This document shows positions 50,928-53,767 of a DNA stretch of 64,000 nt, piece after piece. The position numbers were made by a program, and so were the translations under genes. The stretch is from an uncultured Actinomycetes bacterium (lineage in GTDB: Bacteria > Actinomycetota > Actinomycetes > S36-B12): NCBI GenBank assembly GCA_963842725.1, contig CAWJHN010000001.1, positions 84,447 to 148,446 of the forward strand, read 5' to 3'. Positions within the stretch are counted from its first letter, which is position 1; each line of letters starts with the position of its first letter. The notes beneath the pieces were generated by a model. It saw only the letters and a program-made list of their open reading frames with translations, had not been told where the DNA came from and did no database searches.

Positions 50928-52427
50928 CTACGTGACTGGTCGGGTGACCTCGCGTTCGGCCGCGAACAGCAGCGAGAAGAACCCGGTCAGCAGCCGGTCG
51001 CGCAACTCCACCGGCAGGGCCTCGATCAGGGCCTGGATGCCGGCCGACTCCTCCGGAAGACCGGGTGGACCGTCCCCGACGAGGCCGGCCAGACCGAGCA
51101 GCCCGGCCACCGTGGCGTCGTCGAGGGTGTCGACGTCGATCTCGGCTGCCGCTGCCACGAGTCCGGCGTCGGCACTGGCCCAGGGCAGGTCGCGGCACTC
51201 CTGCGCGGCGAGCGAGAGGTCGACGACGAACTCGTCCACCGTGCCCAGGGACGCCGGCTGCACCGTCAGGTGCGCCGTCCTGGGAAGCTCGCCGCAGGCC
51301 GGCTGCGGCTGGATGAACCACCGGCGCGCCCGCATGCGGTCCGCGAGCACGAAGGGATCAACGCCGCCGGCCGCCTCGTCACCGTCCGATGCCAGGGCGA
51401 TCAGGGTGCTGTCCGGCGACGCGACGACGCGCAGGCCGGGGATGTCCCGCACCGCGGCCACGATGCGGTCGGTCGCCTCGATCGAGCAGCGCACCGCCTC
51501 GCGCATGCCGTCGTCGCCGAGGACGTGGCTCACCGCCCACGCCGCAGCCATCGGCCCCGCCGACTTCGTGCTCTGCAGGGTGGTGTTGACGACCGGGTAG
51601 CCCGGCCAGTCGGAGTAGGCGAAGAAGGCGCCTTCGCGGTACGCGGGATCGTTGAACAGCAGCAGGGAGGCGCCCTTGGGGGCGAAGCCGTACTTGTGCA
51701 GGTCGGCCGAGATCGAGACGACCCCGGGCACCGACAGGTCGAAGTCGGGAAGCGGTCGTCCGAGCCTGCGCAGGTACGGCAGCACCAGGCCGCCGATGCA
51801 CGCATCGACATGGCAGGCGACTCCCCGTTCGGCGGCCGTGGCCGCGACCTCGACCACGGGGTCGATCACGCCGTGCGCGTACGACGGGGCGGAGACGACG
51901 ACGAGTGCGGCGGCCCGGCCCACCTCGTCGAGAGCTGCGACCATGTCCGCCACGCGCACGCGCATCGTCACCGGGTCGACGGGCACGAGGTGGAGCCGCA
52001 GGTCGAGCACGTGCGCCGCCTTGGCGAAGGCCGCGTGTGCCGTGACCGGCATGACGATGACCCCCTGGCCGGTGCCGCCGCCCCGCCGCCAGTTCGACCG
52101 GGCCGCGAGCACGGAGAGCATGCACGATTCGGTGCCGCCGCTCGTCACGAGGCCGCAGGACCCCGGACCGCCGCCCATCAGGTCCAGGCCCCACCCCACC
52201 AGGTCGTTCTCGATGCGGCCGACGCTCGGGAAGACGGTCGGGTCCAGGGCGTTCACCTCGCCGAAGGCCGACAGGGCCCGGCGCCCGGTCTCCGCGAGCC
52301 CCGGCACGCCCGCGTCGTAGACGTACGCGAGCACGCGTCCACCGTGCACGGGCGCATCGTCCGCACGCATGGCGTCCAGTGCGGCCAGGACCTCGTCGGG
52401 TGCTGTGCCGTGCCTCGGCAGGCTCAT
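50928..52427 (-). CDS. PLP-dependent enzyme of the sphingosine-1-phosphate-lyase / group II decarboxylase family
   Basis: ATG at 52425-52427 ([17 protein letters not shown]) overlaps the upstream MFS stop (ATGA). Contains [19 protein letters not shown] and the PLP-lysine region [21 protein letters not shown]...[10 protein letters not shown]. 499 aa, with an approximately 90-aa acidic C-terminal extension. Confidence 0.75.
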   Translation of the reverse strand: [499 protein letters not shown]

Positions 52428-53767
52428 GGGGCGACCTCCTGGTCGATCGGGACGGTGTCGAGCTGGAATCGGCGGATCAGCGGAAGGCTCAGGGCGACCA
52501 GGACGGCTGGCAGCACGGTGAACGCCAGCAGCACACCCGTCTGCGCGGAGTCCGGCTGCGGCACCGCGCCCTCGGACGACGAGACGAAGCCGGTCAGCGC
52601 GAGCATCGTCAGCACGAGAGCCGGGCCGACGGCGAACCCGACCGTCTCGCCCGCGGTCCAGACGCCCGTGAACGCTCCGGCGCGCTGCCGCCCGCTTGCG
52701 GCGGCGTCGGCCGCGATGGCGTCCGGCAGCATGGCGAGCGGGAACATCTGCATCCCGGCGTAGCCGATTCCGCACAGGCCCACCAGGGCCAGGACGGCGG
52801 CGGTGGGCAGGGATCGCGCAGCGAGGAGAAGCAGCGCCGCCACCATGAATACGATCGACGACTGCAGGTACCCGGCGCGCTTGCCCCACCGGTGCCCGAT
52901 CCACGCCCAGCCCGGCATGACGACGAGCGCCGGCACGATGAGGGCCGCGAAGAGGACGTCGCTGAACGACTCCTGGCCCAGCACGTACGTCGCGAAGTAC
53001 TGGGCGCCGGCCAGCATGGCGGCGGTCGCGAACGCCTGGATCACGAATGCCCCGAGCAGCAGCCGGAAGGCGCGGGTGCGCCAGGCCACCTCGAACTGCT
53101 CGCGCAGCGAGTGCCCGTCGTGCCCCGACGTGTCGACCGGCACCGCGCGCGTCCTCCGCAGCGCCCACCAGCAGCCGATCATCCCGGCCGCGATGAGCGT
53201 GGCGACGCCTATCGCCATCAGCAGGTACCCGCCCGCGCCGCCGTTGCCCAGGTCGCGCAGGGCCGGCGCGCCGACGCCGAAGAGCAGGATGCCGAACGCC
53301 AGGAAGGCCACCCGCCACGACATCATGGTCGTGCGCTCCTCCACACTGTCGGTCATCTCCGCCGGCATCGCGATGTAGGGCACCTGGAAGACGGCGAACG
53401 CGGATGCCGCGAGGAGGAAGAAGACCAGTACCCACGCTGCCGATCCGGCGGGGCCGAGGACCGTGGGGGTCGCGAACATCAGGATGAAGACCAGGGGCAG
53501 CGACAGCCCTCCGACCAGGAGGAACGGGCGCCGCGAGCGCCGCCTCTGAGCCGAGCGGTCGCTGAGGGTTCCGACGATGGGCAGGAAGACCACGTCCCAC
53601 AGTTTCGGGACGAGGACGACGACCGCGGCGAGGGCGGCGGCCACGCCGAGGCTGTTCGTCAGGTAGTAGGCCAGGAGCAGCCCGGGCACCGTGCTGAAGC
53701 CCGCAGTTCCGACCGAGCCGAGCGCGTAGCCGAGGTAGGTTCGTCGTCCGAGGCGGTCATCGGTCAC
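52424..53767 (-). CDS. MFS_2 (GPH / MelB / Mfsd2-like) family transporter
   Basis: 447-aa ORF with 12 TM. The N-terminal GPH-type motif is KLWDVVFLPIVGTLSDRS...RRRPFLL. Confidence 0.75.
   Translation of the reverse strand: MTDDRLGRRTYLGYALGSVGTAGFSTVPGLLLAYYLTNSLGVAAALAAVVVLVPKLWDVVFLPIVGTLSDRSAQRRRSRRPFLLVGGLSLPLVFILMFATPTVLGPAGSAAWVLVFFLLAASAFAVFQVPYIAMPAEMTDSVEERTTMMSWRVAFLAFGILLFGVGAPALRDLGNGGAGGYLLMAIGVATLIAAGMIGCWWALRRTRAVPVDTSGHDGHSLREQFEVAWRTRAFRLLLGAFVIQAFATAAMLAGAQYFATYVLGQESFSDVLFAALIVPALVVMPGWAWIGHRWGKRAGYLQSSIVFMVAALLLLAARSLPTAAVLALVGLCGIGYAGMQMFPLAMLPDAIAADAAASGRQRAGAFTGVWTAGETVGFAVGPALVLTMLALTGFVSSSEGAVPQPDSAQTGVLLAFTVLPAVLVALSLPLIRRFQLDTVPIDQEVAP

Follow-up and report, generated by a model that had tools for sequence, protein, structure and literature searches.

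A widespread actinobacterial gene pair joins an MFS_2 carrier to an enzyme of the sphingosine-1-phosphate lyase branch with an altered substrate pocket

This work concerns two overlapping genes in a window of 64,000 nucleotides, the whole stretch of DNA that was analysed (positions 84,447 to 148,446 of contig CAWJHN010000001.1, assembly GCA_963842725.1), from an uncultured Actinomycetes bacterium of the S36-B12 lineage. The upstream gene (52424-53767, minus strand) starts with GTG and encodes a carrier of the MFS_2 family of 447 amino acids (aa). The downstream gene (50928-52427, minus strand) encodes a soluble fold-type-I enzyme of 499 aa plus the stop codon, dependent on pyridoxal phosphate (PLP), which the Pfam family PF00282, matches in the PDB and an AlphaFold2 (AF2) model place in the branch of the sphingosine-1-phosphate (S1P) lyases (SPLs). 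The two frames meet in an ATGA overlap (52424-52427, minus strand), in which the TGA stop of the carrier (52424-52426) and the ATG start of the enzyme (52425-52427) are interlaced. The cassette is a real and widespread variant of an SPL-like enzyme joined to an MFS_2 carrier and, judging from the residues that would line its pocket, the enzyme probably cleaves an amine other than S1P. We tentatively favour a reading in which an amphipathic amino alcohol, its head group being other than phosphate, is imported and then cleaved by retro-aldol chemistry of the SPL type.

A first-pass annotation, made by a model from the letters of this DNA, had listed both open reading frames (ORFs), their lengths and the overlap, all of which are confirmed on the minus strand, as is every string that it quoted. 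It had also proposed that the two genes form one functional unit and that the conservation of the pair be surveyed. This proposal is now supported, the pair being conserved with overlapping or nearly touching frames in differing contexts. Indeed, among 84 loci fetched by means of the enzyme, a carrier orthologue lies directly upstream, on the same strand, in 70, a recurrence far beyond chance, and the exceptions are mostly Nanopelagicales-type loci or cut contigs. Where both genes are present (74 loci), a start codon that permits an [AG]TGA overlap of 4 nt exists in 40 cases, another 19 pairs overlap otherwise and in 9 the genes are separated by 30 nt at most. Moreover, the identities of carrier and enzyme drop in parallel across loci (e.g., 77/83, 62/66 and 46/45%).

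The organisms that bear the pair include Leifsonia, Cellulomonas, Gordonia, Jonesia, Salinibacterium, Rhodoglobus, Glaciibacter and Mycetocola, together with many metagenome-assembled genomes (MAGs), and at least four unrelated genomic contexts hold it. In the window and its close kin the surroundings run from TauE to LeuS; elsewhere the pair is found between a metallo-beta-lactamase-fold (MBL) gene and GATase, TerC, UvrB and CoaE, between TatB-like and Mrp genes in Microbacteriaceae, where DapE is also a neighbour, or between NusB and PyrR. No third partner gene is constant across the related loci, the other neighbours being housekeeping and variable, and TauE itself adjoins the pair only in 8 close relatives. 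Likewise, no recurrent glycosidase, kinase, aldehyde dehydrogenase or deiminase was found among the neighbours of the related loci, the deiminase being looked at over 96 of them; adjacent glycosidases in relatives of the carrier, which the first-pass annotation had named as a point that would tell against its proposal, do not accompany it.

The distribution was surveyed in an even sample of 401 Actinomycetota genomes, in which the tallies for the enzyme and for PanD (discussed below) each include one unpublished genome (G088, G336), neither of which any particular claim depends on. An SPL-like gene at 1e-50 or better occurs in 52 of these genomes, and full-length members of the enzyme family in about 19, that of the window included (some 5%). 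Carrier orthologues (1e-40 or better) are present in 13 genomes, again counting that of the window, and adjoin the enzyme in 12 of them, the thirteenth being G204, whose sequence has bases withheld. Furthermore, identity to the carrier is 56% or more throughout its best 120 database relatives, and the pair was present in both contexts checked. The two genes depend on each other unequally: the carrier is tied to the enzyme, whereas the enzyme also occurs alone. Within families the occurrence is patchy, as exemplified by four of ten genomes in one genus and three of four in another.

Some loci present peculiarities of their own. In one sub-lineage a hydrolase of the MBL fold of 216-220 aa (GloB/YcbL-like, under family cut-offs), lacking in the window, lies directly upstream of the carrier (L001:3966-4616, L011:3976-4626, L016:3944-4606 and L017:3914-4576); in L011 it overlaps the carrier by 4 nt, and hydrolase and pair form a three-gene chain. 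Signs of decay were also met: the enzyme gene is split into ORFs of 331 and 115 aa in L096 (6475-7814), and the carrier is in two pieces in G361 (C1:3243541-3244929). Two pair loci (L059 and L074) are filed under Pseudomonas synxantha and Brevundimonas MAGs, with sequences that fall among the actinobacterial orthologues (46-50% identity), which looks like binning contamination, not transfer.

Turning to the enzyme, it passes Pfam PF00282 with 59.7 bits against a gathering score of 27, and its best phmmer matches are StSPL of Symbiobacterium thermophilum (3MAD/3MAU; 1e-67), human SGPL1 (4Q6R; 2e-64) and the Burkholderia S1PL2021 (5K1R; 3e-58). The enzyme shares the fold of the group II decarboxylases, but similarity to them is far lower (4e-22 for MfnA and 5e-15 for glutamate decarboxylase, GAD), and the enzyme reaches the cut-off of none of the NCBIfam equivalogs MfnA (164.7 vs. 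299.4 bits), GAD (78 vs. 380.4), DABA-DC, PanP and HDC, the last three scoring lower. An AF2 model built from an 87-row alignment has a mean confidence (pLDDT) of 96.5, and the best 21 Foldseek matches of this model are all SPLs, StSPL being aligned with template-modelling (TM) scores of 0.83/0.92 over about 496 columns, C-terminus included, against 0.71 for MfnA. The PDB and Foldseek matches thus support the earlier view that the enzyme is nearer to the S1P lyases than to the GAD or DABA decarboxylases.

The enzyme shares with the SPLs the fold-type-I dimer fold together with its C-terminal segment and, as had been noticed, it lacks an N-terminal membrane anchor, no transmembrane segment being found; in this it resembles the soluble Burkholderia SPL. 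The acidic C-terminal extension of about 90 aa described in the first-pass annotation holds as to its acidity, the last 90 residues counting 16 D+E and 5 K+R. It is not, however, a new appendage, because Foldseek aligns StSPL through the C-terminus: the helical segment at residues 410-499 (50931-51200, minus strand) is the SPL-type C-terminal region carrying an acidic insert of about 43 aa (419-461). This insert distinguishes the enzyme from the SPLs, as does its chromosomal pairing with an MFS_2 carrier, or its descent from a lineage so paired. The family has thousands of database members, which are automatically annotated as "sphinganine-1-phosphate aldolase" or as "glutamate/tyrosine decarboxylase-like", and the pocket justifies neither label. 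Our literature search found no characterised member of the family, and nothing that brings S1P lyase together with decarboxylases and homologues in Actinobacteria, or bacterial Mfsd2a homologues with the pair.

Residues were assigned through gap-free HMMER alignments to StSPL and human SGPL1, the roles being those described for StSPL (PMC6148460 Table 3; PMC10243590). The PLP site is intact. In the phosphate cup, G168, T169 and H310 of StSPL are kept as the GGT of TSGGTES and H244, S353 being replaced by Thr; the residues that sandwich PLP, H201 and C276, are kept as H131 and C210, and D274 as D208. The Schiff-base lysine K311 corresponds to K245 in an HK motif (codon 51693-51695, minus strand). 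Among the residues that bind the substrate phosphate, Y105, N126 and K317 have counterparts conserved in the family, namely Y37, N59 and K251, the latter six residues past K245. Two others are not kept: H129 is D62, and A103, where a small residue (Ala or Thr) is expected, is the bulky Y35. D62 belongs to the motif NALDPT (residues 59-64; 52236-52253, minus strand), where it occupies the position of StSPL H129 and of Asp86 of GadB, the Escherichia coli GAD.

The channel loop is also different. A ten-residue stretch (residues 274-283; 51579-51608, minus strand) replaces the SPL loop WPGGLYFSPT, and in place of the pattern WPGG[LI]Y[FA]SP the enzyme has WPGYPVVNT. This loop is altered in the humanised StSPL that serves as a surrogate in drug design, where GGLYFSP becomes GGIYASP (the enzyme having GYPVVNT), which is taken as a sign that it lines the inhibitor and substrate channel. 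Among 62 family members from related loci, NxLDPT and the rebuilt loop are conserved at 70-95% or more, NxLDPT itself occurring in at least 95% of the members, and the Asp at the H129 position is invariant. Of the SPL pocket, the PLP site and the equivalents of Y105, N126 and K317 stand, and His129, Ala103 and the channel loop do not.

As GAD reference we used GadB taken from NC_000913.3, since the group II paralogues of the same genome as the window are too divergent to align at NxxD. These paralogues are four (L090, L091, L092 and L093), DABA-DC-, PanP- or MfnA-like, all under the cut-offs. N83 and D86 of GadB align without gaps on N59 and D62 of the enzyme. In GadB, Asp86 is contributed by the adjacent subunit as a ligand of the distal glutamate carboxylate, and it is part of the GAD signature (PMC12961736). 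The pocket of the enzyme is thus a hybrid, with a GAD-type Asp where SPLs bind phosphate, beside an SPL-type Lys and Tyr. GadB Tyr305 (in DYLGG) is the catalytic-loop Tyr of the group II decarboxylases, in keeping with the titles of Tyr-mutant PDB entries. Unlike GadB, the enzyme has a Trp (Trp274) in this column, as SPLs do; three residues further on, Tyr277 is conserved in the family and is Gly in SPLs.

A full HMMER scan of 1.8 billion representatives returned 908 proteins at 1e-30 or better, and motif classes were read from the best 150 of them. The NxxD class (60 rows, the enzyme of the window included) has the WPGY loop and no N-terminal extension; the NxxN class has 26 rows; the NxxH class, with the canonical SPL motif, has 14, mostly with N-terminal extensions of 75-165 aa; several further classes are small. 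In a tree of 133 rows (LG+G4), a single clade of 63 rows, supported at 99% in the Shimodaira-Hasegawa-like approximate likelihood ratio test (SH-aLRT), gathers the classes other than NxxD, save for a few scattered members, together with one NxxD row, and the NxxH rows make up a nested clade (99%), while the enzyme stands outside, within a clade of 8 NxxD rows. A tree of 54 rows (LG+C20 with posterior mean site frequencies, PMSF) gives the same split at 99%, the NxxH clade reaching 97%. Forcing the 6-row clade of the enzyme together with the NxxH rows costs 204.9 log-likelihood units (lnL), with p = 3e-64 in the approximately unbiased (AU) test, for a group that was named after the tree had been seen.

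Because the outgroup branches that carry the root are very long, the family can be placed no more closely than as sister or basal to the SPLs. The placement against characterised SPLs, a check that the first-pass annotation had itself proposed, thus leaves the enzyme outside the clade of the canonical-motif (NPLH) SPLs. Together with the invariant Asp at the H129 position, the Tyr in place of Ala103 and the rebuilt loop, this does not support the phosphorylated long-chain base that had been suggested as substrate.

The carrier matches Pfam MFS_2 over its full length (1e-87, residues 13-437) and has about 12 hydrophobic segments, in agreement with the MFS_2-type transporter of 12 transmembrane segments first described. 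It does not reach the cut-off of the TIGR00792 (gph) model (157.8 vs. 231.35 bits), and its best solved relatives are Mfsd2a (7e-19), which with Mfsd2b represents the lysolipid and S1P carriers, and then the Na+/melibiose symporter MelB (6e-13). It is the single match in its own genome (83.8% complete), where no second MFS_2 gene was found. K18, D19, D124 and W128 are the galactoside ligands of MelB; in the carrier they are T21, A22, Q128 and I132, and the family keeps Q128 and I132 with hardly an exception, if any.

The motif KLWDVVFLP (residues 55-63; 53579-53605, minus strand), located by alignment to Mfsd2a and MelB, covers the Asp pair of the cation site (D55/D59 in MelB, WDAITDP in Mfsd2a). 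The carrier keeps the first as D58, and the second is Leu62 in the lineage of the window and Ala in L031, while it is present (WDVIIDP) in the Leifsonia, Cellulomonas and Gordonia orthologues, a variation that may point to a switch of coupling ion among family members. Near the position of the Lys of transmembrane segment 11 in MelB and Mfsd2a, the family has an invariant Glu374-Thr375. On the whole, the carrier has in common with Mfsd2a/Mfsd2b and MelB the full-length MFS_2 fold and the first cation-site Asp with the basic residue that precedes it (K55, D58), but the likeness is distant, the MelB sugar ligands are missing and, in this lineage, so is the second Asp. The solved MFS_2 members are importers, with Mfsd2b as the known exporter exception (PMC10243590).

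From these data we infer a direction of transport, a type of reaction and a class of substrate, which would make the pair a self-contained uptake-and-cleave cassette of two genes. The MFS_2 carrier would take an amphipathic primary amine into the cell and would probably be proton-coupled or a facilitator, because it has no MelB sugar ligands and, in this lineage, no second cation-site Asp. The enzyme, made in step with the carrier and working as a dimer, would bind the amine as an external aldimine on PLP-Lys245 and break the bond between C-alpha and C-beta by SPL-type retro-aldol chemistry, yielding an aldehyde and a small amine. The substrate would most likely be a 2-amino-alcohol or a lyso-lipid-like compound, e.g., a long-chain base that is free or bears a neutral or cationic head group; a head group other than a phosphate monoester is proposed because Asp stands in for the phosphate-binding His and Tyr for Ala103, and because the channel loop has been rebuilt. 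A more specific form of this proposal, which we consider rather unlikely, is a new specificity in the SPL branch, whereby a soluble lyase would receive from a bacterial Mfsd2-like importer a long-chain base that is not phosphorylated or has some other head group, or else a lyso-lipid amine.

Cleavage of an imported amino alcohol is preferred, with reserve, on the grounds of the SPL fold with its funnel-covering C-terminus, the Trp at the GadB Tyr305 column and the Mfsd2-like carrier devoid of sugar ligands. Several points weigh against it. The type of reaction cannot be deduced from sequence, and the PF00282 proteins are mostly decarboxylases. D62 is a GAD-type residue, and Tyr277 could serve as a proton donor of the decarboxylase type. 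At the split that sets off all canonical-motif SPLs, the family is on the side of the outgroup, so that lyase chemistry may have arisen only later. Finally, about a third of the bearers of the enzyme, Nanopelagicales-type genomes among them, lack the carrier, and an imported substrate is therefore not obligatory.

The main rival is an amino-acid alpha-decarboxylase with its own carrier, the fallback of the first-pass annotation, which we hold to be on the unlikely side and nevertheless live. The MFS_2 protein would import an amino acid or swap it for the product amine, after the manner of GadC/GadB, CadB/CadA or OxlT, and the enzyme would remove the alpha-carboxylate while the Asp62/Lys251/Tyr37 pocket held the distal group of the substrate. 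The PF00282 match, the MfnA and GAD scores, the gap-free alignment of N59/D62 with GadB N83/D86, the basal position of the family and the conservation of Tyr277, which is Gly in SPLs, are all in line with this; moreover, the self-sufficient build of the cassette, two genes and no other catabolic ones, is what decarboxylase/antiporter modules typically show. However, every NCBIfam decarboxylase equivalog stays under its cut-off, the GadB Tyr305 column holds Trp as in SPLs, and the enzyme is SPL-like both in overall similarity and in its long C-terminal funnel segment. In addition, the carrier is of the MFS_2 and not of the APC type found in GadB/GadC-like pairs, an acid-stress context is missing, and no MFS_2 member is known to carry amino acids. 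One particular form of this rival, an MfnA-like aspartate decarboxylase that substitutes for PanD, was rejected, as PanD is present in 12 of the 18 genomes bearing the enzyme; in the genome of the window (83.8% complete), PanD (PF02261) was not found.

It can also be conceived that the substrate is endogenous and that the carrier exports the amine or a product derived from the aldehyde, in which case the pair would be a biosynthetic or secretion module instead of a catabolic one. Enzymes that stand alone in several lineages, including small genomes of the Nanopelagicales type, need no imported substrate; carrier orthologues occur almost only beside the enzyme, as would be expected of a dedicated product exporter, and the pair sits among housekeeping genes with no regulator. 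Yet we judge this improbable: the patchy distribution within families fits accessory scavenging better than core biosynthesis, no other biosynthetic genes accompany the pair, and solved MFS_2 members, Mfsd2b excepted, are importers (PMC10243590). In turn, the original proposal, in which an Mfsd2b-like importer of S1P supplies a true long-chain-base-1-phosphate lyase, agrees with the SPLs being the closest solved structures and with the preserved PLP site and Y105, N126 and K317 equivalents. It also draws on the active Burkholderia SPL, which has Gln at the H129 position, Thr at A103 and no N-terminal extension (PMC6148460 Table 3; PMC5234717). Nevertheless, an invariant acidic residue takes the place of the phosphate-binding His and a bulky Tyr that of A103, the channel loop has been rebuilt and the family falls outside the clade of all canonical-motif SPLs, the AU test rejecting their union (delta lnL 205, p 3e-64), which makes this proposal very improbable.

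The genome to which the window belongs measures 2.84 Mb in 4 contigs and is 83.8% complete, the G+C content of the window being about 71%. Freshwater-sediment metagenomes gave small DNA shares only (0.23 or less). Housekeeping genes frame the pair. One flank holds RNase E, L27, Obg, ProB, a gene of the aldehyde dehydrogenase family (probably proA), RsfS, a histidine phosphatase, a tRNA gene and a divergent TauE gene, which is separated from the start of the carrier by a gap of 28 nt. The tRNA gene (54596-54668, minus strand; RF00005, 64.5 bits) is located between the TauE and histidine phosphatase genes, and an Rfam search for a riboswitch or RNA leader gave no match near the pair. On the other side follow an M10-like peptidase, EamA, LeuS, AlkZ, DegV, PlsY and ComEC.

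Three of these neighbours deserve a comment. Directly downstream of the enzyme gene, a 382-aa protein (49661-50809, minus strand) has a weak matrixin (Peptidase_M10) match (7.8e-07) and does not accompany the pair at other loci. The leuS gene (46013-48694, minus strand) is apparently frameshifted, with the break near 46716-46780: in the long frame the third-codon-position G+C (GC3) signal is gone after about 46774, and the anticodon-binding domain resumes in another frame (46216-46716). The probable cause is an indel introduced into the MAG by assembly or sequencing, and not the death of an essential gene. Lastly, an ORF of 1122 aa (40096-43464, minus strand) joins an SLBB (ComEA-like) domain to ComEC (Competence and Lactamase_B), and represents either a fusion of comEA with comEC or an ORF that is over-extended because the DNA is rich in GC.

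The pair is widespread, and its cultured bearers include Leifsonia, Cellulomonas and Gordonia. The identity of the substrate would give a function both to an orphan MFS_2 subfamily and to a family that stands beside the S1P lyases, and would show how the SPL phosphate pocket evolved from, or into, a GAD-type Asp pocket. If the substrate were a sphingoid base or a lysolipid, Gram-positive bacteria of soil and freshwater would have in the cassette a new way to scavenge or detoxify lipids. Furthermore, should the new specificity in the SPL branch prove true, Actinobacteria would detoxify or eat the sphingoid bases of eukaryotes, Bacteroidota or sphingomonads without a kinase step.

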